Source: Bacilli bacterium (GTDB lineage: Bacteria > Bacillota > Bacilli > JACDOE01). From it: a DNA stretch of 64,000 bases. Numbering within the stretch: position 1 is the first letter of the stretch; each line of letters begins with the position of its first letter. Shown here piece after piece: positions 7,175 through 55,616 of this stretch. A program made the position numbers and the translations under genes. The notes under the pieces are model-generated. The model was not told the DNA's origin, did not search any database, and saw only the letters and a program-made list of their open reading frames with translations. Location of the stretch: positions 69,185 through 133,184 of the forward strand of contig JAWLDF010000004.1 of the NCBI GenBank assembly GCA_041686735.1, written 5' to 3'.

Positions 7175-8341
7175 CTACTCCCTTTTTCCGAATCCTTTAC
7201 TGGTAAATCCCGACTGGTCGATAAGAAACTTTACTTGAATGTTTGTATGGAGATCAGTCAATAGCTCACTCCACTTATCTTTCCATTGTTCCCAGAGGTG
7301 GTTGTCGGTTCGAAAAAGATGCAGTCCAAGACCGAAAGAATCTAAACCGCGTTTTAAACTTGCTTCAAGAACGGATTCGATCTGACTTTGAATTGTTGAC
7401 TCCAGATTCTTTTCGATTCTATGAATGATATCGGGATTTTCTAAATTAAGGAAAGTGCTGTCCTCAAGAATAAATCCGGTTGCCTCAACTGAAATATTGA
7501 AAACGGGTTTCCCGTTTTTAACGGTATGTTTCAAATTCATTTTGGAGGAATCAATTCTCACACCGATTTCCGTCTCATCTTCGAGCGGAAAGGTTGTTGA
7601 TTTTCCTTTCATTCTCTCAGTCAACCAAAAAACACCCATCGTTTGTTTGGCATCGGTGATCATGGATAGTCGATTTTCTTTAAAAAGTGCAACATGATGG
7701 ATTTGCAGTTCTTTTTTTTGTTCCCCGGGGTTATGATTATCCGTCGTTATCGTTTCCACGACAGGTAAAATCGGATCACTGCCCTGTCTTTCAAAGGCGT
7801 ATATAAAATCTTTCATCCTGATATTGATTCCCGACTTGGCAATCTCCCGCATCGCTTCGGCAGGCACACTTTCCAAATGAGGCTGTGAATTGAGAATGTC
7901 AAGAGCATCGCCTCTTGCTACCAGCAGATATGTCGTCAGGCGGGATTCAGGATATCTGGCAATCACGTCCATGATACTGCTGATTCCCTTTCTTGCAAAA
8001 TCTTCACCGATGACAAGTACTCTTTCATGGGCGAAAAAGAGCCGTCGAGACATTCTCATTTGCATCTTTTCATAGGCTTCACTTAGATTTCGACCGGTTT
8101 CACTATCCACATAAAAAGATTTGTCCCCTCCTGTCCCTCCCCCTCCTCCACCGGACCCTGCCCCGCCCATTTGCCCGGGCAGAGGAATTTGTGTCGATAC
8201 CCGGAAAAGTCCGTCTTCGGCTAAATCAAAACCTGAAGCGGCTACAATGGCAATGTCATTGATCTCAACACGATCCCAGCAGCCACTTAAGATTGTCATT
8301 GAAACCGATAGCATGATGGATATCAAGATGCGTTTTTTCAA
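7175..8341 (-). CDS. Spore germination protein, C subunit (GerAC/GerKC family lipoprotein).
   Basis: It has a signal peptide with lipobox LSGC followed by a Gly-rich linker. Length and position are typical of GerxC. Confidence 0.85.
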   Translation of the reverse strand: MKKRILISIMLSVSMTILSGCWDRVEINDIAIVAASGFDLAEDGLFRVSTQIPLPGQMGGAGSGGGGGGTGGDKSFYVDSETGRNLSEAYEKMQMRMSRRLFFAHERVLVIGEDFARKGISSIMDVIARYPESRLTTYLLVARGDALDILNSQPHLESVPAEAMREIAKSGINIRMKDFIYAFERQGSDPILPVVETITTDNHNPGEQKKELQIHHVALFKENRLSMITDAKQTMGVFWLTERMKGKSTTFPLEDETEIGVRIDSSKMNLKHTVKNGKPVFNISVEATGFILEDSTFLNLENPDIIHRIEKNLESTIQSQIESVLEASLKRGLDSFGLGLHLFRTDNHLWEQWKDKWSELLTDLHTNIQVKFLIDQSGFTSKGFGKRE

Positions 8342-9873
8342 GAGTCCTGCTCTCCTTTTGTGAGATTCTGTTGATTTTGAGGATAAAGGTCCCCGCTTTC
8401 TCGTTTCAAGTTACCTCCCACTACATGTTTGGGACGATATTTCATTGACCACCATGGTGCCCTGATGAATACATCTTTTAATTCATTGAGAGATAACGGG
8501 GCTACGGGTGCAAGATAGGGAACACCGAATGAACGTTGTTTGCATAGATGGGTGGTTAAAAGAATCAGTCCCACCAGAATCCCGAACAATCCCATTGTAG
8601 CTGCGAGAAGCATCATCGGAAACCGCAGAAGCCGGATGGATATCGCCAGGTTAAAACGGGGTATGGTAAAAGAAGCGATTCCGGTGATCGATACGATAAT
8701 GACCATGGGTGCGGATACAATACCGGCCTGAACAGCAGCCTGTCCGATAACAAGTGCACCGAGAATACTGACGGCCTGACCGATTGTCCTCGGAAGTCGC
8801 ACCCCCGCTTCCCGCAAAGCTTCAAAGGAAATTTCCATGATCAGGGCTTCAACAAAAGCCGGAAAAGGGATTACCTCACGACTGGATGCAACACTGAACA
8901 AAAGTGACGTTGGCAGCATCTCCTGATGATAAGTGGTTACTGCGATATAAATCGCCGGTAAAAACAAAGCAATAATGATAAAGAAGAGACGTAACCATCG
9001 TAAAAAAATAGAAATATAAAAGCGTTCGTAATAATCCTCACTTGCCTGCAACAGTTGCCAGAAGGTCGAGGGGATGATCAGTGAAAACGGTGTTCCGTCG
9101 AGCAAAATGGCAACCCGTCCTTCAAGCAGATTGGCAGCTACGGTATCGGGTCGTTCCGTATTTTGAATTTGCGGAAACAAGGACCACGGATTATCTTCAA
9201 TCAGTTCCTCAATATAACCGGTCTCCAGCACCCCGTCGATGTGGATGCGGTTGAGGCGATTTTCAATCTCTTTCAGTAATGTGGGACTGGCCAGTCCATC
9301 CACATATAAAATGGCCAGACTTGTATTTGTATAAGCTCCGACTTTCATTGATTTGATCTTCAGATTAGGGGTCCGTAATTTTCTTCGTACCATCGAGGTG
9401 TTAACCCGCAAATTTTCGGTAAAACCTTCGCGCGGACCGCGAATGGCGGTTTCCGTGTCCGGTTCGGAAACAGAACGTTGTTCTCCTCCCTTGGCGTCAA
9501 AGATGATCGCCTGATCATACCGGTCGATGAGAAGCACTGTATTGCCGTCGAGAATGTGACCGATCAATTCTTCCATTTTTTCAGTTTTATTTACCTGAGC
9601 GATGGATTGCATTTGTTCTTCCACATCGCGCAGAGTGTACCTGTGATCATCCTGTTCCGTCAACAGTTGATACAATGCGTTTATTTGAATGCTGTCCGTA
9701 TTGACCAGACCATCGATAAAAATCAGTTCTGCACGCTGTCCGTCAATCTGAAAGGCACGATAGACCACGTCCGTACTTTCAACGAACAAATTCTTGATGT
9801 ATTCTATATTTTTCACGATGCTGCGATAAATTTTTGTGTCTGCTTCCTTACCGGTGGAATTGCTTTTAGGCAT
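8338..9873 (-). CDS. Spore germination protein, A subunit (GerAA/GerKA family).
   Basis: It has a hydrophilic N-domain and a C-terminal 5-6 TM block. A-C-B gene order matches gerK. The start was moved to the ATG with GGAGGA 7 nt upstream. Confidence 0.8.
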   Translation of the reverse strand: MPKSNSTGKEADTKIYRSIVKNIEYIKNLFVESTDVVYRAFQIDGQRAELIFIDGLVNTDSIQINALYQLLTEQDDHRYTLRDVEEQMQSIAQVNKTEKMEELIGHILDGNTVLLIDRYDQAIIFDAKGGEQRSVSEPDTETAIRGPREGFTENLRVNTSMVRRKLRTPNLKIKSMKVGAYTNTSLAILYVDGLASPTLLKEIENRLNRIHIDGVLETGYIEELIEDNPWSLFPQIQNTERPDTVAANLLEGRVAILLDGTPFSLIIPSTFWQLLQASEDYYERFYISIFLRWLRLFFIIIALFLPAIYIAVTTYHQEMLPTSLLFSVASSREVIPFPAFVEALIMEISFEALREAGVRLPRTIGQAVSILGALVIGQAAVQAGIVSAPMVIIVSITGIASFTIPRFNLAISIRLLRFPMMLLAATMGLFGILVGLILLTTHLCKQRSFGVPYLAPVAPLSLNELKDVFIRAPWWSMKYRPKHVVGGNLKRESGDLYPQNQQNLTKGEQDS

Positions 9874-10029
9874 ATAAACGTCCTCCGCCGTTATCAATTT
9901 TCTTTCCTATTTTGTCCACTTGTACAGGGTTTATCCACCCGGGGACGATGTGAAACATTTAATCTTTTAAGGACGTCAATACTTTCAGATAGCAGAAATC
10001 ATATGCCAAAAGAATGAGGAGGAAAGGCA

Positions 10030-12348
10030 ATGGAGAAACGGAAGAGATCAGGCAAAATGTGGCTGGTTTCAGTACTGGCTGCAACCATGGCTTTCAGCGG
10101 TTTTTCATTTTCGCCCGGTGCAGCAGCTTCATTCAACAAAGACGAGGTATCTAAAATAGTAACCGCTGCAGAAAAGAAGGAGGAGATTACAAAAGAGGAA
10201 GCCATTCGGATCGTTAAGGAATTTATGGAGATTCCCGATTCGTATAAACTGGAATCTACTTCTTTCAGCAGCAACTGGTATCCGAAAAGGATGCCGGTAT
10301 GGCGTATCAATTGGGTAGAGCGACAGGGGGATTATAAACCGGTAAATCAATTATCCTTCGTGGTGGATGCCGAGAAAGGTTATGTCATTTCAATGGATCA
10401 CTATCGTTATACCGATGAACCGGCATCATTTCCACCGAAAGTAAGTACAGAAGAAGCGCAAAAAATCGCTGAAACGTATGTACAAAAAAATCTGCCGGAA
10501 TTCTTTGATAAAGTGAAGGTTAAGGTACAAAACACTCCCGATCTTATACCGCTTGACGGTCGCGTATTTTATGACATTGTTTTTGAACGGGTGGTCCATG
10601 ACAATATACTGTTTCCGGAAAATTTCATTCGCGTTAATGTGAATGGAAACGGGGAAATTACCAGTGTGTATTTTCACTGGGATTATGAAATCTCGTTCCC
10701 GGACGTTGAACACCGGATCAGCAGTGAAGAAGCGGAGAAGTTACTGAAAGAAACACTTGCCGTTCAAATGACTTATATCCGTCCATGGAGACAGGAAGCA
10801 TACGGACAGAATGATTCGGAATCTTCCCCGATCTATTTTGGATATCGTTATCCCGCAACCGGTCAATATTATGTAGATGCAAAAAGCGGGGTATTGCGGG
10901 ACATGTATGGTGAGGAAAAAGATGTGCCTGCTATTGCTGAGATAAAACCGCTGGTTGATCAACCTAAGGCAGATGAGCCTGCTCCGCTGCCACAGGAGAT
11001 CACAAGTGAACAGGCCGTCGACATAGTGACATCAGAATTTTCTATTAACGGGGATCTGGTCATGCAGGACACTCGTTATTACGACAGCTGGGGACGTGAC
11101 AAAATTTCGGTCTGGATGATAAACTGGGAAGCGCGGAGTGAAGATTCTCAGTATTTTAAATGGGTTCGGGCTGTTGTGGATGCCTCAACGGGACAAATTT
11201 TGGAGTTTTATAATGATGGCATGATAAAGACAGAAGATTCAGGGGATACCGGAAAAGATGAAGAGAAGATCAGTTATGATGAAGCTAAAAAAATAGCGAT
11301 CAAATCCATAGAAAAATTGAGTCCCCATTTGATGCATCAGGTATATATCGACGATTCCATGAACAATCATGACCTGATCAGGGCCCCTGAACAGCATTAT
11401 TTTCTGTATTTTAAACGGATTGTCAACGGACTTTCTCTTGATGATCAGGGAATTCGAGTCGGTGTGAACGCAAAAAGCGGTGAACTGACGAGTTTTGCTA
11501 TTGACTGGGATAAAAAAGACTATCCTGTGCCTCCGGAAGGGTTAATGAGTAAAGAACAGGCGTTGGATCTTATTTTGCAGGATGTGAATGTTGAATTGAC
11601 CTATTTCCAACCCTATCCGCGTTATGATGCTACTGGAGAACTCGATAAGGAACAAAGCTCAATCTATCTCGTTTATCGCATGATCAGTGATAACCGTAAA
11701 GGTGCATATTTCATTGATGCTCAATCGGGACAATGGCGAAGCTTAGAGACGGGAGAATATTTTCGAGGCGATGAAATTCCACAGGACATTGAGGGCCACT
11801 GGGCACAAAAAGAACTGGAATTAATGTACCGCTACAATGCATTTGAAATGGAAGACGGGTTGGTTCATCCTGATGAAGCCATTAAACGCGGAGAATTGAT
11901 TAAAATGCTGGTTCTGGCCGTGCACCAGGGGAATTATTATCCTGTTGATATGAATCAGGAAGCAGCCTTTAAAGATGTTGCGAGTGATTCAAAATACTTC
12001 TCTTACGTTCAGACTGCTGTTGCCCGTAACTGGATCGACACCGACAGTGATACGTTTAATCCGGAGGCTTCTGTTGACCGGGAAGAATTGGCAGTGCTGA
12101 TCACACGGGCGCTCGGTTATGGCAGTCTGGCCGACACGGAAGGAATTTTTTACATCTCCTTTGAAGATAGGGATCAAATCAAGGAAACAGGACATGTGGC
12201 CATTGTGAGCGGACTCGGGATCATGAAGGGGGACGGTCAACGTTTCCATCCCGACCAGACAGTGTCACGGGCCCAGGCAGCCGTAGCTTTTTATCGCTTT
12301 CTTGAAGCAAGAGCAAAGATGAGGTCTGACCAAACACCGACTTTTTAA
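10030..12348 (+). CDS. Secreted cell-surface protein with four N-terminal PepSY-like repeats and three C-terminal SLH (S-layer homology) domains.
   Basis: It has a signal peptide. Repeated modules read ...VWxINWxxRxxD...VVDAxxGxIxxxxxY.... There are three SLH-like motifs (...EGHWAQKELELMYRYNAFE..., ...FKDVASDSKYFSYVQTAVARNWID..., ...FEDRDQIKETGHVAIVSGLGIMKGDGQRFHPD...). Confidence 0.6.
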   Translation: MEKRKRSGKMWLVSVLAATMAFSGFSFSPGAAASFNKDEVSKIVTAAEKKEEITKEEAIRIVKEFMEIPDSYKLESTSFSSNWYPKRMPVWRINWVERQGDYKPVNQLSFVVDAEKGYVISMDHYRYTDEPASFPPKVSTEEAQKIAETYVQKNLPEFFDKVKVKVQNTPDLIPLDGRVFYDIVFERVVHDNILFPENFIRVNVNGNGEITSVYFHWDYEISFPDVEHRISSEEAEKLLKETLAVQMTYIRPWRQEAYGQNDSESSPIYFGYRYPATGQYYVDAKSGVLRDMYGEEKDVPAIAEIKPLVDQPKADEPAPLPQEITSEQAVDIVTSEFSINGDLVMQDTRYYDSWGRDKISVWMINWEARSEDSQYFKWVRAVVDASTGQILEFYNDGMIKTEDSGDTGKDEEKISYDEAKKIAIKSIEKLSPHLMHQVYIDDSMNNHDLIRAPEQHYFLYFKRIVNGLSLDDQGIRVGVNAKSGELTSFAIDWDKKDYPVPPEGLMSKEQALDLILQDVNVELTYFQPYPRYDATGELDKEQSSIYLVYRMISDNRKGAYFIDAQSGQWRSLETGEYFRGDEIPQDIEGHWAQKELELMYRYNAFEMEDGLVHPDEAIKRGELIKMLVLAVHQGNYYPVDMNQEAAFKDVASDSKYFSYVQTAVARNWIDTDSDTFNPEASVDREELAVLITRALGYGSLADTEGIFYISFEDRDQIKETGHVAIVSGLGIMKGDGQRFHPDQTVSRAQAAVAFYRFLEARAKMRSDQTPTF

Positions 12349-20244: not shown

Positions 20245-20312
20245 AAAGAACTGGATTTGATGCTGACCGGCCGAACGCAGTGAGGGAAAGGCAAATCAAA
20301 TCCAGTTCTTTA
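20245..20312. repeat. Copy 2 of the same repeat family in inverted orientation, acting as terminator for the minus-strand methyltransferase gene.
   Basis: GGATTTGATGCTGACCGGCCGAACGCAGTGAGGGAAAGGCAAATCAAATCC is flanked by AAAGAACTG/CAGTTCTTT. Confidence 0.7.
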
Positions 20313-21155
20313 TTTTTCTAATATACAGACCACCATTTTTACCAGATATTCATTAAGAACAGGCCATTTTGACGGGATTGCGAGAAAAGGACGCAACGGT
20401 TCATGATGGTAATAACGAACCTTCAGCAGAGTCTTCTTCATGATCCCTTCAAAGCGTTGAATCGTCATTTTATTAATATATGAAAAGAATTCTTCTCCTT
20501 TTTCGTTACGACCGATACGAAAGTGAATCCTTTCCTCTCCGTCCGGCAGTGGGGCAACCAGATATTTGTACACGCTGATTAATGTTTTATCAGAGAAAAA
20601 AGCATGAACCCACGGAATCCCGATGACATCGGATAGGTGGGCGCCATAAGGATGATAATAGGGGGGGAAATTAAGATAGAGTCGCCCTCCGGATTTGAGA
20701 ACACGGTGACATTCGGACAAGACAGCCACCGGATCGTCTACATGTTCCATGGCATCATTCATGATGATCGTATCCAGTGAATCCGATTCAAAAGGCAAGC
20801 GGGCCGCATCTCCTGTGATAAAGGTGGTTTTATCTTCCAATCCTTTTTGTCGGGCGAGTCGGGTCGCTTCTTCCCGGTAATGAGGCAAGACATCGATTCC
20901 GTAAACGTGTTCGGGACCGAGGGTCGCATAATACAGGGTTTTTCCCCCTGCGCCGCACCCGATATCGAGAACGGTTTTCCCCTGAAAAATCTCTTCTTTT
21001 CCGGCATGTCTCAGATAAAACTGAATGGTTCGTTCACCCTGTTGAAACTGCCATTCAGCATAGGTCATTTTCCCTTCATTGGCGAGATTAAAAGGGTGAA
21101 CCGGTTTTGGAAAAATATAATTGAGTGTTTTACATAATCTTGCGGCTACTGACAT
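20310..21155 (-). CDS. Class I SAM-dependent methyltransferase.
   Basis: Motif I VLDIGCGAGG and a post-I acidic residue; Methyltransf_11/25-like. Confidence 0.75.
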   Translation of the reverse strand: MSVAARLCKTLNYIFPKPVHPFNLANEGKMTYAEWQFQQGERTIQFYLRHAGKEEIFQGKTVLDIGCGAGGKTLYYATLGPEHVYGIDVLPHYREEATRLARQKGLEDKTTFITGDAARLPFESDSLDTIIMNDAMEHVDDPVAVLSECHRVLKSGGRLYLNFPPYYHPYGAHLSDVIGIPWVHAFFSDKTLISVYKYLVAPLPDGEERIHFRIGRNEKGEEFFSYINKMTIQRFEGIMKKTLLKVRYYHHEPLRPFLAIPSKWPVLNEYLVKMVVCILEK

Positions 21156-21291: not shown

Positions 21292-22959
21292 ATGGGGAAG
21301 GAAGTCTGTTTCGTGTCGAAAAAACACTTTCTCTATGGTGCTTTTATATTAAGTATTGCAGCGATCTTATCCAAGCTGTTAAGCCTGTTGTACCGCATCC
21401 CTTTTCAACGCATCGCCGGAGATGAAGGGCTGGCCATGTACCAGGTGGTCTATCCCCTCTACTCTACTTTGTTGATATTGGTTGTTTCCGGAGTCCCGAT
21501 CGTGTTGTCCAAAATGGTCTCCGAACAGGCCGTGGTGGGAAATGTAGCGGAAGAAAAACGCATTGTGCGGTTGACATTCGGTTTTATCAGTTTCATTGGA
21601 TTTCTGGCATTCATCCTGTTGTTTTTCGGAGCAGAACAACTGGCTTCCTGGACGGGATTACCGGAGGTGACACCGGCCATCAAGGCGATTTCTTTCGCCC
21701 TGTTTATCGTCCCGATTGTGGCGGTTCTCAGGGGATTTTTCTACGGACACCAGCTGATGGTTCAATCGGGAACTTCCCAGGTAATCGAACAGTTTTTTCG
21801 CGTAATCACCATCATCCTTTTTGCTTTTTTGTTGGTGAAAGGGGGATTCGGGCTGAATGAAGTGGTGGCCGGGGCTACGTTCGGCACGGTGGTCGGCGCG
21901 GTATTCGGCGCCGTCTATCTAATCTATCACTACGGATCTTTTCAGCGACGTCGTCACACGGTGACAATGAATGTAACTCGTACAGAACCAACGCTGGAAT
22001 CTTCGCCGATTTCCGGCAGTGAACTGTTTAAAACCATCGTTGTTTTTACCTTTGCAGTCAGCATCAGTTCGTTAATGATACCGCTTTTTGGACTGGCGGA
22101 TTCCTTTACGGTGGTCAATTTGTTGATTGCAGCGGAAGAATCGGTGCAGGCGGCGAAAGATTGGTTTGGATATTATAGCCGCGGACTTCCGTTCGTACAG
22201 GCGACCACGATGTTTGCCAGTGCCCTGGCCTTATCAATTGTGCCGAAAATTGCCGCAGAGGGAAGAGTTCAGAATAACGATGAGATTAAGCGATCCGCCC
22301 ATCTTTCCATCAAAGTGACTGCACTGATGGGACTACCGGCCGGAGTGGGGCTTGCTCTTTTGGCGGATGATTTGAATTTGATTTTGTTCGGGGATCGGCA
22401 GGGGAGTTTTGCGATTGCAATGCTATCCCTTTCATCAATCCTGCTCACGTTTGCCATCACGACATCAGCTATTTTGCAAGGCATGGGGAAAGTTTATCAG
22501 CCTGCCGTTTATCTGCTGGTTGCACTTGTGAGCAAGCTGATCTTAAATGTCGTACTGGTCCCGCTCTATAACATTGATGGAGCAGCCATGGCGACTCTGC
22601 TTGCTTACGGATTGCTTACATTTTTAAACGGATGGACCATTTCCCGATCTGTCAAAGGGTTTGACGGCTGGTCGGTCATCTTGGGAAAACCTCTTCTGGC
22701 TACACTGATAATGGCTGTATTTGTTTGGGGGGGAGACCGCCTGATTCGCACGTATCTTCCGGCAGATGATCAGGGTACTGTTTTGATCGGTCATTGGGTG
22801 CAGGCGTTGTTGATTGCGGGACTGATCGGTCTGGGTGTACTGGCCTATTTTGTGACCATTTTTGCCGTCAGAGGGATTGAAAAACATGAACTGGAGAGAA
22901 TCCCGAAAGTGGGTGTGTTCATGGCAAATCTGCTAAAAAAGTGGCGTCTTTTATCTTGA
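21292..22959 (+). CDS. MOP-superfamily polysaccharide/peptidoglycan-precursor flippase (SpoVB/YtgP-like).
   Basis: 555 aa with 14 TM segments. The N-terminus resembles SpoVB (...LYRIPFQRIAGDEGLAMYQVVYPLY...). Confidence 0.65.
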   Translation: MGKEVCFVSKKHFLYGAFILSIAAILSKLLSLLYRIPFQRIAGDEGLAMYQVVYPLYSTLLILVVSGVPIVLSKMVSEQAVVGNVAEEKRIVRLTFGFISFIGFLAFILLFFGAEQLASWTGLPEVTPAIKAISFALFIVPIVAVLRGFFYGHQLMVQSGTSQVIEQFFRVITIILFAFLLVKGGFGLNEVVAGATFGTVVGAVFGAVYLIYHYGSFQRRRHTVTMNVTRTEPTLESSPISGSELFKTIVVFTFAVSISSLMIPLFGLADSFTVVNLLIAAEESVQAAKDWFGYYSRGLPFVQATTMFASALALSIVPKIAAEGRVQNNDEIKRSAHLSIKVTALMGLPAGVGLALLADDLNLILFGDRQGSFAIAMLSLSSILLTFAITTSAILQGMGKVYQPAVYLLVALVSKLILNVVLVPLYNIDGAAMATLLAYGLLTFLNGWTISRSVKGFDGWSVILGKPLLATLIMAVFVWGGDRLIRTYLPADDQGTVLIGHWVQALLIAGLIGLGVLAYFVTIFAVRGIEKHELERIPKVGVFMANLLKKWRLLS

Positions 22960-23020: not shown

Positions 23021-23440
23021 CTAGCCCTGGCATTGCGGGCAGAGCCCGTAGAACTCGATATTATGGTCGGATAAGCGATATCCGGACTCTTTTTCAATGG
23101 ATTTCATGTTAATTCCAGCCTCGAAATGGATATCATCGATCCGGCCGCACTTTTTACATAAAAGATGATAATGAGTGTGTTCAAGTACCTCGAAGCGCGT
23201 ACACCCTTCTCCGCAGCGAATTTCCCTTACAACGCCGATTTCTTTCAGAGATCTTAGTGTATTGTAAACCGTGGCAAAACTCATATTTGAATATTCGTCC
23301 ATAAGCTGGTCATGAATTTGTTCGGCTGTGGGATGATCAAGTTCTTTCAATACCTTAATGATCGCCACCCTTTGCGGAGTTACACGAATCTGATGATCTT
23401 TCAACAACTGTACAATTGATTCTGTTTCTGGATGGGCCAC
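23021..23440 (-). CDS. Fur-family metalloregulator (PerR/Fur-like).
   Basis: 139 aa with a DNA-binding helix (...PTAEQIHDQL...SFATVYNTLRSLKEIGVV...), a regulatory His cluster (HTHYH) and structural CxxC...CxxC (CKKCG...CPQC). The 'PerR/Fur-like' call rests on its divergent position relative to peroxiredoxin and glutaredoxin-like genes; I cannot tell PerR from Fur or Zur by sequence alone. Confidence 0.75.
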   Translation of the reverse strand: MAHPETESIVQLLKDHQIRVTPQRVAIIKVLKELDHPTAEQIHDQLMDEYSNMSFATVYNTLRSLKEIGVVREIRCGEGCTRFEVLEHTHYHLLCKKCGRIDDIHFEAGINMKSIEKESGYRLSDHNIEFYGLCPQCQG

Positions 23441-23547
23441 GATCCATCACCTCCCGCTTCAATCTTCATCTATATTATATCACATACTAGTTTAAAATTA
23501 TTACAAAATAATATTGACTTAGAATAAGTTTTATTTTAAAGTTATAA

Positions 23548-23850
23548 TTGCGAATTGTAAAGAGAATACTTTTTATGGTTAAAATGAATATGGAAGGCTG
23601 TTGTTTATCCATGGAACCTGTAACGATCTATGTCACGGAAGGTTGTGGCAGTTGCCGGCAAATGAAAGAGTTATTGACCAGTCGCGGAGTGTCGTACATA
23701 GAAAAAAATACAACGACGGATCCCGGATTGATGGATGAGTTGAACCGACTGGGTTCATCAACCGTCCCGACGGTGGTTTTCGGGGAGCATATCGTCATCG
23801 GATTACGACCCAATCTCATGAACCGACTACTGGACGAAGCCGGATTATAG
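23548..23850 (+). CDS. Glutaredoxin/NrdH-like small redoxin. The start codon is uncertain (23548, 23584 or 23611).
   Basis: It has a thioredoxin-fold redox motif (YVTEGCGSCRQMKELL) and a ...TVPTVVFGEHIVIG... segment typical of glutaredoxin-like proteins. Confidence 0.5.
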   Translation: MRIVKRILFMVKMNMEGCCLSMEPVTIYVTEGCGSCRQMKELLTSRGVSYIEKNTTTDPGLMDELNRLGSSTVPTVVFGEHIVIGLRPNLMNRLLDEAGL

Positions 23851-23943
23851 GATGAGTGCAACTTTTGCAGGGATCGCAGCATTGAGACCGATCCTTTGCA
23901 AATACAATAATCTCTGTATTCCAAATAAAGGAGGATGAAAAGA

Positions 23944-24426
23944 ATGCCAAAAGGAGCTACTGAAACAAAGACGCTCAAAGTTGGCGACAAGGCTCCCGAC
24001 TTTACGTTGAAAGCTCATGGCGATCGCACGGTTACTCTTAGCGATTACCTGGGCAAGAAAAATGTATTCATCGCATTCTACCCCTTAGACTGGACCCCTG
24101 TCTGAGGCGCGCAGATGCCTTCATACGAGGACGATCTGTCCAAGTTTGAAGAGTATGATACCCAGGTTCTGGGTATAAGTGTAGATAGTATTCCCAGTCA
24201 TGAAGCATGGCAAAAATCACTGGGAGGAATTTCCTATCCTCTGTGCTCCGACTTCTGGCCCCACGGTGAAGTTGCACAGAAGTACGGTGTATTACGCGAT
24301 GAGGGAATGACCGAACGGGCCCTGTTTGTCATTGACAAAGAAGGTGTTGTCCGCTTTATCGATGTTCATCCCATCGATCAGCAGCCGGATAACGAAGAAA
24401 TTTTTGAAGTGCTTCGTAAACTGTAA
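23944..24426 (+). CDS. Peroxiredoxin (AhpC/TSA, Bcp/PrxU-like) that is a candidate selenoprotein. An in-frame TGA at 24103-24105 replaces the peroxidatic Cys.
   Basis: RBS AAAGGAGGA. The N-terminal half ...KAPDFTL...[13 protein letters not shown][TGA]GAQMP... is the PxxxTxxC peroxiredoxin motif with TGA exactly at the C position. The same frame continues for 107 more codons of typical Prx sequence (...VLGISVDS...HEAW...[10 protein letters not shown]...), which the track calls as a separate ORF (24115..24426). A hairpin at 24112-24138 lies 6 nt after the TGA. Confidence 0.6.
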
Positions 24427-24485
24427 AACATACATGAGCGGCTGTTTCCCCTTTTCCGAAGGAAGGCCGTAAGGATAATCGAAAA

Positions 24486-24525
24486 ACCTGCTTCGTTTAC
24501 TGATGAAGCAGGTTTTTCTTACACG
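24486..24525 (+). terminator. Rho-independent terminator downstream of the peroxiredoxin gene.
   Basis: AAACCTGCTTC-GTTTACTGAT-GAAGCAGGTTT followed by TTCTT. Confidence 0.6.
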
Positions 24526-24549
24526 ACATAGTAAAGGAGTTGAGCAGGC

Positions 24550-25251
24550 ATGGAAATGTCGAGAAAAGCCATTCCTTATACACCTAACGATAAACATTTA
24601 CATGAGATGAACATAGGGATTGTTTCTACTGCCGGAGCCCATTTAAAAGATCAAGAACCTTTCAGTGAGGATCCGACAACCGGCGATTTAACTTATCGCA
24701 TCATCCCGGGTGACGTCGACAGTGCCGATTTTCATGTAACCCATGCTGCACCAAAAGAAGAATATGACACAAATGAGCCGATGAAGGATATCAATACCAT
24801 TTTTCCAATCGACCGCTTGCGTGAACTTGCGGAAGAGGGATACATCGGCGGGCTGGCCGATCAGCATTACTCGATGATGGGTTTTGCGATGAAATTAAAG
24901 CGCTTACAGGAGGAAACGATTCCAGAGGTTGTAAAAAAAGTTGTTCGTTCCAAAGCGGACGGAGTCATTCTTACAGCCGGCTGACCTCTCTGTCATCGCA
25001 CTGTAGTTACAGTGCAAAGAGCGATTGAAGCTCAGGGAATTCCCACGGTTTTGATCACACTGGACCCCCATCAATCGGGGTTGATGCGTCCGCCTCGGGC
25101 CATTCATCCGAAGGGATTTCGTTTCGGTCACTCACTGGGAAAACCGGGTGATCGCGAAATGCAGATGAAAGTATTAAAAGCATCCCTGGAACAGCTCACT
25201 ATCCGTCAGGAACCCGGACAGATCCATGAGCTGGATTTTCCCGGCTATTAA
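24550..25251 (+). CDS. Selenoprotein-B family protein (GrdB/PrdB-like, PF07355-type) that is a candidate selenoprotein. An in-frame TGA at 24982-24984 lies in a UxxC motif.
   Basis: The two track ORFs 24550..24984 and 25012..25251 are in the same frame, separated only by the TGA. The fused product reads ...DINTIFPIDRLRELAEEGYIGGLADQHYSMMGF...VILTAG-U-PLCHRTVVTVQRAIEAQGIPTVLI..., which matches from memory the pattern of D-proline/glycine reductase selenoprotein B, where Sec sits in a TAGUxxCHR context. The hairpin CACTGTAGTTACAGTG begins 13 nt after the TGA. RBS AAAGGAG. Confidence 0.5.
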
Positions 25252-54536: not shown

Positions 54537-55616
54537 ATGACAAACGGCAAACAATCACGACGGGATGAATTTTCCCTCATTCATTTTTTAACGGGACAGG
54601 CGGTTTCGCGAAGTTCACAACATCCGTTTCTTGAAATTCCGGTTGGTGACGATGCAGCCGTTTTCACCATCGCTGATGGAATGAACGTCGTGACAAGCTG
54701 TGATACCATGGTGGAACATGTCCATTTTACACGACAGACCCTTACTCCGGAGGACATCGGTTACAAATCACTGGCGGTCAATCTCAGTGATATTGCTGCG
54801 ATGGGGGGGATCCCCCGATTTTACCTGGTCGCACTTGCCATTCCGCAGCAATGGGGAGATGAGGAGTTAAAACAGATCTACCATGGCATGGATGAACTGG
54901 CTCAAACCTATGATGTCCATCTGATCGGCGGAGATACCGTTGCCACTTCCGGACCGCTGACCATCACCGTCACTGTACTGGGAGAAGTGGAAAAGGGAAA
55001 AGCAATCCCCCGTTCCGGCGCACGCCCCGGAGATATCCTGTTTGTGACCGGTCATCTGGGAGCTTCTGCTGCGGGACTTCATCTGTTAATGAATAACGGC
55101 GGAGACGGATTCATGACATCGCACGGGGAAGGGGAAGTTCAAGATGAACAGCACCCTAATGCACCGTTGATTCTGTCACACCGTCGTCCCCTACCCGGAG
55201 TTGAGGCGGGAAGGATCATGCTTAAGAACGGACATGTCCATGCCCTCAATGATATCAGCGACGGACTTGCTTCTGAAGCATGGGAGATTGCAGATGCCAG
55301 CGGTGTCACACTGATTCTGGAAGAATCGCGCATCCCGGTGTTGCCTGAAACGGTCTCATATGCGCGGAAGCAACAGGCCAGCATCAGGGAATGGGTCTGT
55401 TATGGAGGAGAGGATTACCAATTGCTGGGCACGGTGGCGCAATCGGCATGGCCTTCACTGGAGAAGCAAATGAAGGAAGCCGGAATCGCCCTTTCGGCCA
55501 TCGGACGAGTGGAAGAAGGCACATCTGCCGTCCTCTGGATCGATCAAAACGGACGCCAATCTCCACTGAAGGCGAAGGGATACAATCATTTCTCCGCAAA
55601 AATAAACGAAAACTGA
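54537..55616 (+). CDS. thiL: Thiamine-monophosphate kinase.
   Basis: AIR-synthase-related fold (...GDDAAV...VTSCDTMVEHVHF..., ...GGDTV...). Its position immediately upstream of tsaE matches Bacillus. Confidence 0.8.
   Translation: MTNGKQSRRDEFSLIHFLTGQAVSRSSQHPFLEIPVGDDAAVFTIADGMNVVTSCDTMVEHVHFTRQTLTPEDIGYKSLAVNLSDIAAMGGIPRFYLVALAIPQQWGDEELKQIYHGMDELAQTYDVHLIGGDTVATSGPLTITVTVLGEVEKGKAIPRSGARPGDILFVTGHLGASAAGLHLLMNNGGDGFMTSHGEGEVQDEQHPNAPLILSHRRPLPGVEAGRIMLKNGHVHALNDISDGLASEAWEIADASGVTLILEESRIPVLPETVSYARKQQASIREWVCYGGEDYQLLGTVAQSAWPSLEKQMKEAGIALSAIGRVEEGTSAVLWIDQNGRQSPLKAKGYNHFSAKINEN

Follow-up and report, generated by a model that had tools for sequence, protein, structure and literature searches.

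A probable selenocysteine-containing AhpE-like peroxiredoxin and its PrdB-like neighbor in a Bacilli genome

The peroxiredoxin gene and its in-frame UGA codon

The stretch of DNA analyzed here (the "window"; 64,000 nucleotides of contig JAWLDF010000004.1 of a Bacilli bacterium, assembly GCA_041686735.1) carries on its forward strand a gene for an AhpE-like peroxiredoxin (Prx) of 160 residues (23944..24426), in which the codon at the peroxidatic position, residue 54, is an in-frame TGA (24103..24105). Judged from the sequence, this gene very probably encodes a peroxiredoxin with selenocysteine (Sec) in place of cysteine, the UGA being decoded as Sec. A ribosome-binding site (RBS; AAGGAGG, 23928..23934) read from the sequence lies 9 nt before the ATG at 23944, and a promoter-like sequence (TTGAGA-18-AATAAT, 23882..23911), which is only a 10/12 match to the consensus, lies further upstream on the same strand. 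One frame runs from this ATG to the TAA at 24424-24426; its single in-frame TGA falls inside P-L-D-W-T-P-V-* and is followed by 107 sense codons. The mechanical list of open reading frames (ORFs) cuts the gene in two, into 23935..24105 (56 aa) and 24115..24426 (103 aa). A preliminary description of the window had reported the RBS and start codon, the uninterrupted frame beyond the TGA, and the split in the ORF list, and is borne out on each of these points.

That description also assigned the gene to the AhpC/TSA peroxiredoxins and placed the TGA on the peroxidatic Cys codon of the PxxxTxxC motif, and profile searches agree. With Cys put in place of the stop, the read-through product matches Pfam AhpC-TSA (PF00578) at an E-value of 4.6e-39 and 133.6 bits (cut-off 26) over residues 13-138, across the UGA. 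The motif is present as P-L-D-W-T-P-V-U, and the catalytic arginine is kept, the Arg of T-E-R-A-L-F aligning with the Arg of A-N-R-G-T-F in AhpE.

The gene was compared with the best 80 homologous loci, taken from named genomes with one genome per species, which span at least three phyla (Bacillota, Blastocatellia, and Chloroflexota) and encode proteins with 98% down to 60% identity to the window Prx. The carriers include Tumebacillus, Effusibacillus, Ammoniphilus, Schinkia azotoformans, Anaerobacillus, Alicyclobacillus, and Desulfosporosinus, as well as many Blastocatellia, Anaerolineae, and other Chloroflexota. All 80 loci have TGA at the position of 24103-24105, and in none of them is there a second stop among the 38 codons that precede the TGA or the 49 that follow it. 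Ungapped comparison, used where valid, gives a nonsynonymous difference (pN) of ~0.05-0.15 against a synonymous difference (pS) of ~0.6-0.9 on both sides of the TGA; because pN is far below pS there, the 5' part appears to be translated and under constraint.

A genuine Cys occupies the peroxidatic column in more distant full-length homologues (database entries P0003, P0009, P0018, P0023, and P0047), where it is encoded by TGC or TGT. Four further entries, from short metagenome contigs, have Trp at the catalytic column (P0001, P0002, P0006, and P0011). The one that was traced, P0001 (L083:1432-1935), has TGA in its DNA, and the standard bacterial code does not give the database sequence; such W-for-U entries could serve to find unannotated selenoproteins. 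In the homology search, nearly all matches above 85% identity are fragments of ~103-106 aa that cover the C-terminal 64% of the query only, which suggests that gene callers stop at the same place in many genomes. The public record of the window Prx (P0004) is itself a 103-aa fragment, and that of the adjacent PrdB-like gene on the same NCBI contig (P0123) is 144 aa long. Within the window, TGA terminates 18 of the 38 longest frames, which argues for the standard code in the host.

A hairpin downstream of the UGA and the decoding of the codon

A two-tier hairpin resembling a selenocysteine insertion sequence (SECIS) follows the UGA within the coding sequence (24115..24156, forward strand). It consists of an outer stem (24115-24123/24147-24156) and an apical stem GGAC/GUCC (24129-24132/24138-24141) closed by the loop GAUCU (24133-24137), and it is the minimum-free-energy (MFE) fold of the region (-15.3 kcal/mol, z -4.32, with 0 of 200 shuffles as good). 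On an alignment of 81 Prx sequences (79 distinct), this structure scores better than 500 of 500 column shuffles and better than every slid register. Compensatory changes occur at pair 18-48 (U-A to C-G, 13 sequences) and at pair 21-45 (G-C to A-U, 14 sequences), both members of the latter pair being third codon positions. The register of the inner stem differs by clade, with GGAC...GUCC in the window and GGCUG...CAGCC in Blastocatellia, where it needs a serine codon switch from UCC to AGC. In an alignment-free MFE profile of the 81 genes, the most stable 45-nt segment begins 9-12 nt downstream of the U of the UGA and has a mean of -16.9 kcal/mol against a background of ~-9.5 kcal/mol; 32 of the 81 genes have their one global minimum at this place. 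At the same place, five true-Cys homologues have z values of +0.4, +0.1, 0.0, -1.0, and -1.2, compared with a mean of -2.3 for the Sec forms.

The preliminary description had proposed a different SECIS, a hairpin at 24112-24138. This hairpin can form (-6.7 kcal/mol, z -2.1) and is mutually exclusive with the two-tier structure, but it is not conserved: pair 10-36 is present in 28 of 79 sequences, pair 12-34 fails in 39 of 79, and its covariation is no better than that of slid registers. The comparison supports 24115-24156, rather than 24112-24138, as the recoding element.

Several negative results weigh against decoding as Sec. ARAGORN found no tRNA-Sec in the window or in 60 of the loci, the sole tRNA in the window being tRNA-Ser(GCU). 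A tblastn search with SelA, SelB, and SelD of E. coli against the window and the 80 loci of 20 kb each gave one weak SelD-like match only (24.5%; 54537-55616, forward strand), which was rejected because it is a thiamine-phosphate kinase, ThiL (TIGR01379, 329.8 bits); ThiL shares a superfamily with SelD and could be mistaken for it. RNAalifold gave no single consensus structure for all 81 sequences, since the inner-stem registers differ between clades, and it was replaced by counting of named structures and by the alignment-free profile. Rfam gave nothing at gathering thresholds anywhere in the window, and within 24050-25100 none of its SECIS families matched even at E-values of up to 10, although a missing Rfam match is unsurprising for bacterial SECIS elements. 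On the other side, a second gene with a conserved UGA and a hairpin adjoins the Prx gene, which argues for a Sec-decoding organism. For Bacillus (Schinkia) azotoformans LMG 9581, whose locus L022 holds a Sec-Prx orthologue with TGA, Peng et al. list SelD, SelA, SelB, YbbB, and six selenoproteins (PMC5029168, Tables S1/S2).

If the TGA were a pseudogene lesion or a miscalled TGC or TGT, no full-length protein would be made, in keeping with the public annotation, which treats the gene as a 103-aa fragment (P0004, P0007), and with the lack of sel genes within the window. However, the same codon recurs in every one of the 80 independent assemblies, which represent several phyla, and the 87 flanking codons in each of the 80 loci hold neither a further stop nor a frameshift. 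Moreover, pN/pS is ~0.1-0.3 in the 5' part, even though a true stop at the TGA would leave this part untranslated, and a co-varying hairpin lies 3' of the TGA. The preliminary description had likewise preferred Sec-for-Cys replacement to a decaying gene and had named alignment at the UGA column and a search for scattered stops in relatives as checks; both speak for its view, as do the constraint on each side of the TGA and a structure found in Sec and not in Cys forms. A lesion or a sequencing error is thus extremely improbable. Selenium-independent reading of the UGA as a standard amino acid (Trp, Cys, or Gly), whether by an alternative code or by leaky termination, could explain the Trp entries mentioned above and is very unlikely, if somewhat less so. 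The code is standard by the count of window frames closed by TGA, and the W entry that was checked has TGA and is mistranslated with respect to the standard bacterial code. An enzyme with Trp or Gly as its peroxidatic residue would be inactive, which does not fit the strong constraint on the site; the hairpin is specific to UGA forms, and the named carrier B. azotoformans LMG 9581 has SelA, SelB, and SelD. In effect, a pseudogene, a sequencing error, and a reassigned code are excluded.

The gene might also be truly split, with termination at the UGA and a restart at the ATG at 24115, in which case two polypeptides, of 53 aa and 103 aa, would either assemble or work separately. This ATG is in frame, 9 nt past the TGA, and Met is found there in 72 of the 80 loci. 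Neither fragment would hold the catalytic residue, however, and the Met is an ordinary conserved residue (Q-M/I-P) that is also found in uninterrupted Cys forms. In five loci of the TGA type, there is no start codon to be found within 15 codons of the UGA, and no RBS precedes 24115, so that a split gene has hardly any likelihood.

Peroxiredoxin class and neighboring genes

The top seven matches of the Prx in a search of PDB sequences are all of the AhpE type (E-values of 1.6e-34 to 1.9e-33; six of Mycobacterium tuberculosis AhpE, at 1.6e-34 to 3.8e-34, and one "AhpC/TSA family protein"), whereas the matches that follow, of the Prx1 type, have E-values of 2.3e-28 or weaker. M. tuberculosis AhpE (Rv2238c; PDB 1xvw, 1xxu, and 4x1u) is the closest solved relative (1.6e-34 over residues 9-142) and is of the same length class; the UGA aligns with its peroxidatic Cys, AhpE having Cys45 where the window Prx would have Sec. 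By these sequence comparisons the window Prx probably belongs to the AhpE-like subfamily. The only invariant Cys/Sec column in the 81 Prx sequences is the peroxidatic one. A candidate resolving Cys named in the preliminary description is present in the window protein, but its column holds Cys in only 21 of 81 sequences and Leu in 55, as in AhpE. A second sporadic column has Cys in 23 of 81, and the extra sporadic Cys shows no relation to gene context across the loci. Because no second Cys column is conserved, the enzyme would be of the 1-Cys (here 1-Sec) type; AhpE, too, is a 1-Cys enzyme with no conserved resolving Cys.

Three families were tried and rejected, as the scores fall far below their equivalog or family cut-offs: PrxU (NCBIfam NF040737, 81.9 bits against 270, with 143 of 233 profile positions covered), the Prx-SUH thiol peroxidase selenoprotein (NF045827, 46.8 against 298), and AhpC (TIGR03137, 64.5 against 272). 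The preliminary parallel with PrxU therefore holds for Sec at the peroxidatic site and not for orthology. PrxU is longer, Prx1/Prx6-like, and from a strict anaerobe, whereas the window type is a 160-residue, AhpE-like protein found in spore-forming Bacillaceae and in Blastocatellia. PrxU of Eubacterium acidaminophilum is reportedly a biochemically characterized Sec-peroxiredoxin that depends on thioredoxin-type reductants, and to our knowledge it is the only one.

The closest counterpart is the family listed in the bacterial selenoprotein surveys of Zhang, Gladyshev, and co-workers as "Prx" (PF00578, TxxU), which shares with the window Prx the AhpC/TSA fold and Sec for the peroxidatic Cys in PxxxTxxU, and which was found mostly by an in-frame TGA and a downstream hairpin, with many Cys homologues alongside. 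Nothing essential appears to differ, and the window gene belongs there. Lists of bacterial selenoprotein families have included this family and "proline reductase PrdB" (UxxC) since 2004-2005, and both are among the most abundant selenoproteins of ocean metagenomes, with counts for Prx and PrdB of 43 and 42 in the Sargasso Sea and of 253 and 235 in the Global Ocean Sampling (GOS) data (PMC1088965, PMC2398784). Sec-Prx had been found in 78 sequenced organisms by 2016 (PMC5029168) and ranks with the most common selenoprotein families known from bacteria (PMC2398784, PMC5029168, PMC13188914). The window Sec-Prx is a further member of this long-known family and not a new kind of selenoprotein.

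Upstream of the Prx gene, on the same strand, lies a gene for a glutaredoxin (Grx)-like protein with a CGSC motif (23611..23850), which resembles YruB, NrdH, and mycoredoxin (Pfam Glutaredoxin 5.8e-14; NCBIfam YruB family 7e-17); its start codon is uncertain, the ORF being open from 23548. A PerR-like peroxide-response regulator of the Fur family is encoded divergently (23021..23440, reverse strand; NCBIfam PerR 1.9e-37, under the equivalog cut-off). The intergenic region between the perR-like and grx-like genes contains a PerR-box-like site, TTAAAATTATTACAA (23492..23506), which has two mismatches to TTATAATNATTATAA and is the sole site in the window with two or fewer mismatches to it. In five loci, exact PerR boxes are found just upstream of a Sec-Prx gene and the fusion gene that precedes it (L022:8515-8529, L026:8535-8549, L030:8634-8648, L036:44-58, and L037:8624-8638). 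Because of these PerR boxes, Prx expression is probably peroxide-inducible via the divergent PerR-like regulator.

The fusion gene just mentioned is directly upstream of Sec-Prx in 15 Bacillota loci (L007, L009, L012, L015, L019, L022, L024, L026, L030, L032, L036-L039, and L041). It encodes 420 residues with a glutaredoxin domain (CPYC) joined to a flavoprotein resembling thioredoxin reductase (TrxR; CSTC) and sits ~1.5 kb upstream of the Prx UGA, for example as ORF L022:8595-9878, with a likely ATG ~20 nt in. Tumebacillus avium (CP021434.1) has two Sec-Prx gene copies (L007 and L024), both with TGA and both with a Grx-TrxR fusion gene upstream. In six Chloroflexota loci (L050, L055, L071, L072, L076, and L080), a CxxC glutaredoxin domain (VVMYCTSWCPxC...) is joined to the C-terminus of the Sec-Prx itself through a Pro/Ala-rich linker, and the protein database contains many Prx-Grx fusions of the Cys type (e.g., P0010, 249 aa).

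Downstream of the Prx gene, a second putative selenoprotein gene (24550..25251, forward strand) encodes a 233-residue protein of the PrdB/GrdB family ("PrdB-like") in one frame with a single TGA (24982..24984), which would be read as Sec in the context VILTAG-U-PLC and give a U-P-L-C motif. This codon is TGA in 42 of 43 readable related loci and is replaced by TGT (Cys) in L051 alone; in 32 full-length homologues, the residue aligned to it is a near-invariant Cys. A SECIS-like hairpin, GCACUGU-AGUU-ACAGUGC (24998..25015, forward strand; -12.5 kcal/mol, z -2.59), follows 13 nt after the UGA and has compensatory variants elsewhere, such as GUACCGU-GGUC-ACGGUAC in L002, and the L051 Cys variant has the weakest post-codon structure among the 45 PrdB-like sequences compared. 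Between the Prx and PrdB-like genes lies a strong terminator-like hairpin (24487..24520, forward strand; -16.2 kcal/mol, z -5.87) with an 11-bp stem (24487-24512) and the U-run UUUUUCUU.

Read through the UGA, the PrdB-like protein matches TIGR04483 PrdB at 1.4e-52 over profile positions 20-231 of 238, with 178.5 bits, below the equivalog cut-off of 300, and Pfam GRDB (PF07355) at 36.5 bits (cut-off 22). It thus resembles PrdB of D-proline reductase and GrdB of glycine reductase in its homology over nearly the full PrdB length and in Sec at the same U-x-x-C site, but it scores under the PrdB cut-off, and its immediate neighbors are not PrdA or other prd genes. The genes within ~3 kb encode SpoVB-like, PerR, Grx, Prx, AcpS, and Nnr proteins, with no PrdA among them; in other loci, the constant neighbor is the Prx gene. 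Orphan "PrdB" selenoproteins carry the D-proline reductase label even in aerobes, and homologues of the PrdB-like protein are found in aerobic Ktedonobacteria and Pyrinomonadaceae. For the PrdB-like clade, the label "proline reductase" is probably a misnomer. The protein has no solved relative by sequence, and its predicted model, a confident one with a predicted local distance difference test score (pLDDT) of 92.6, resembles generic Rossmann-like alpha/beta folds only and not the thioredoxin fold.

The PrdB-like gene is downstream of Sec-Prx in 44 of the 80 loci, and it never occurs together with the Grx-TrxR fusion: none of the 15 fusion loci has a PrdB-like gene, and none of the 44 PrdB-like loci has the fusion. 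The Prx/PrdB-like pair is Sec/Sec in most loci, Sec/Cys in L051, and Cys/Cys in L085:2984-3760, L088:3048-3770, and L091:2505-3726, while a Cys-Prx paired with a Sec-PrdB-like protein was not seen in this small sample. A PrdB-like variant without the second Cys (G-C-H-Y-S-H-R; L092:1834-4204) has no Prx gene nearby and is flanked by genes for a rhodanese/metallo-beta-lactamase fusion and a Fur-family regulator, a setting that hints at a sulfur or persulfide role for some members of the PrdB-like family.

Predicted catalytic cycle and candidate reductants

In the mechanism proposed here, the UGA at 24103-24105 would be decoded by Sec-tRNA(Sec) delivered by SelB, for which the two-tier mRNA hairpin within the coding sequence would be the recruiting element, as conservation of the UGA and covariation in the hairpin suggest. 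The selenolate would then attack the hydroperoxide and become a selenenic acid, as expected from peroxiredoxin chemistry and from the conserved P/T/U/R active site. Since the Prx family has no conserved second Cys, the oxidized enzyme would require an external reductant for its recycling, either a dithiol or a selenol-thiol protein. Expression of Sec-Prx would be under the control of the PerR-like regulator.

The direct reductant is most likely the Grx-like protein (CGSC) encoded just upstream, as suggested by the Grx-Prx fusions, by the Grx-TrxR fusions upstream of orthologues, and by the recycling of AhpE by the glutaredoxin-like mycoredoxin-1 (PMC6178380). The Grx-type dithiol would in turn be reduced by a flavoprotein or by a low-molecular-weight thiol. 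The mycothiol system is actinobacterial, whereas the candidates at the window and its related loci are the YruB-type Grx-like protein, the Grx-TrxR fusions, and the PrdB-like selenoprotein. The arrangement in the 15 fusion loci, where a redoxin domain is fused to a TrxR-like flavoprotein directly upstream of the peroxidase, follows the logic by which AhpF feeds AhpC. It differs in that the redoxin module is a single N-terminal glutaredoxin domain instead of the double thioredoxin (Trx)-fold of AhpF, and in that the peroxidase is a 1-Sec AhpE-like enzyme and not a 2-Cys AhpC; in the window, the Grx-like protein has a gene of its own, and there is no adjacent flavoprotein.

The PrdB-like selenoprotein (UxxC) probably belongs to the same peroxide-response module and serves there as an additional or alternative redox partner, a role for which conserved adjacency is the sole basis. 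For the recycling step only, a stronger version can be considered, in which this protein and not the Grx-like protein is the dedicated reductant, its U-x-x-C attacking the selenenic acid of Prx to form a two-selenoprotein peroxidase. In its favor, the gene is directly downstream, with its own conserved UGA, in the 44 loci across phyla, is never found with the Grx-TrxR fusion, which holds the neighboring position in 15 other loci, and forms matched all-Cys pairs with Prx in L085, L088, and L091. It is under the PrdB equivalog cut-off with no PrdA-like gene among its immediate neighbors, and the counts of Prx and "PrdB" selenoproteins in the ocean metagenomes cited above (43/42 and 253/235) are nearly equal. 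The basis is gene context, however, and several observations count against the pairing. In the window, the two genes are separated by the terminator-like hairpin, which a consensus terminator scan did not list. In a reciprocal test with four Cys-type PrdB-like genes from distant taxa, one has an adjacent Prx gene, one has a Prx gene 1.8 kb off on the other strand, and two have none nearby. The predicted fold is generic Rossmann-like rather than thioredoxin-like and has no informative structural relative, and the Grx-like protein of the window has a documented precedent as an AhpE reductant. The PrdB-like protein as dedicated reductant is accordingly a doubtful alternative to the Grx-like protein, though one with some claim to attention.

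A broader proposal, which we put forward tentatively, is that orphan "PrdB" selenoproteins are not proline reductases but may be redox partners of AhpE-like (seleno)peroxiredoxins, in a two-selenoprotein peroxide-reducing module that would be interchangeable with the Grx-TrxR fusion. The gene context leads to a testable hypothesis on the function of orphan "PrdB" proteins and on the recycling of 1-Cys/1-Sec AhpE-type Prx outside Actinobacteria, and Schinkia azotoformans LMG 9581 and Tumebacillus avium are among the carriers available in culture. A 2026 review that lists selenoprotein operons (PMC13188914) does not include the Prx/PrdB-like adjacency, and no description of this pairing or of a Sec-AhpE was found in the accessible literature, a weak negative given its incomplete coverage.

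The value of the Sec-Prx itself is chiefly one of annotation, as it represents a PerR-linked antioxidant enzyme missed by current records. Neither the Sec-Prx nor its PrdB-like neighbor reaches any NCBIfam cut-off, and because both are in addition held as fragments of 103 aa and 144 aa, the selenoproteomes of Bacillaceae, Alicyclobacillaceae, Blastocatellia, and Chloroflexota may be undercounted.

Elsewhere in the window, genes for GerA/GerAC germination proteins, a YpeB/PepSY and SLH-domain protein, and a SpoVB-like protein (7175-9897 on the reverse strand; 10030-12348 and 21292-22959 on the forward strand) point to a spore-forming Bacillota host. The only other sizeable TGA-interrupted frame of the window, 9379-12348, was rejected as spurious, since its 5' part has no family match and a GerA gene overlaps it on the opposite strand. 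An S-adenosylmethionine (SAM)-methyltransferase gene (20310-21155, reverse strand) weakly resembles ArsM-type and methyltransferase families of selenoproteins (~1e-14 to 1e-17); no TGA interrupts its frame, and the product is probably an ordinary Cys-type methyltransferase.

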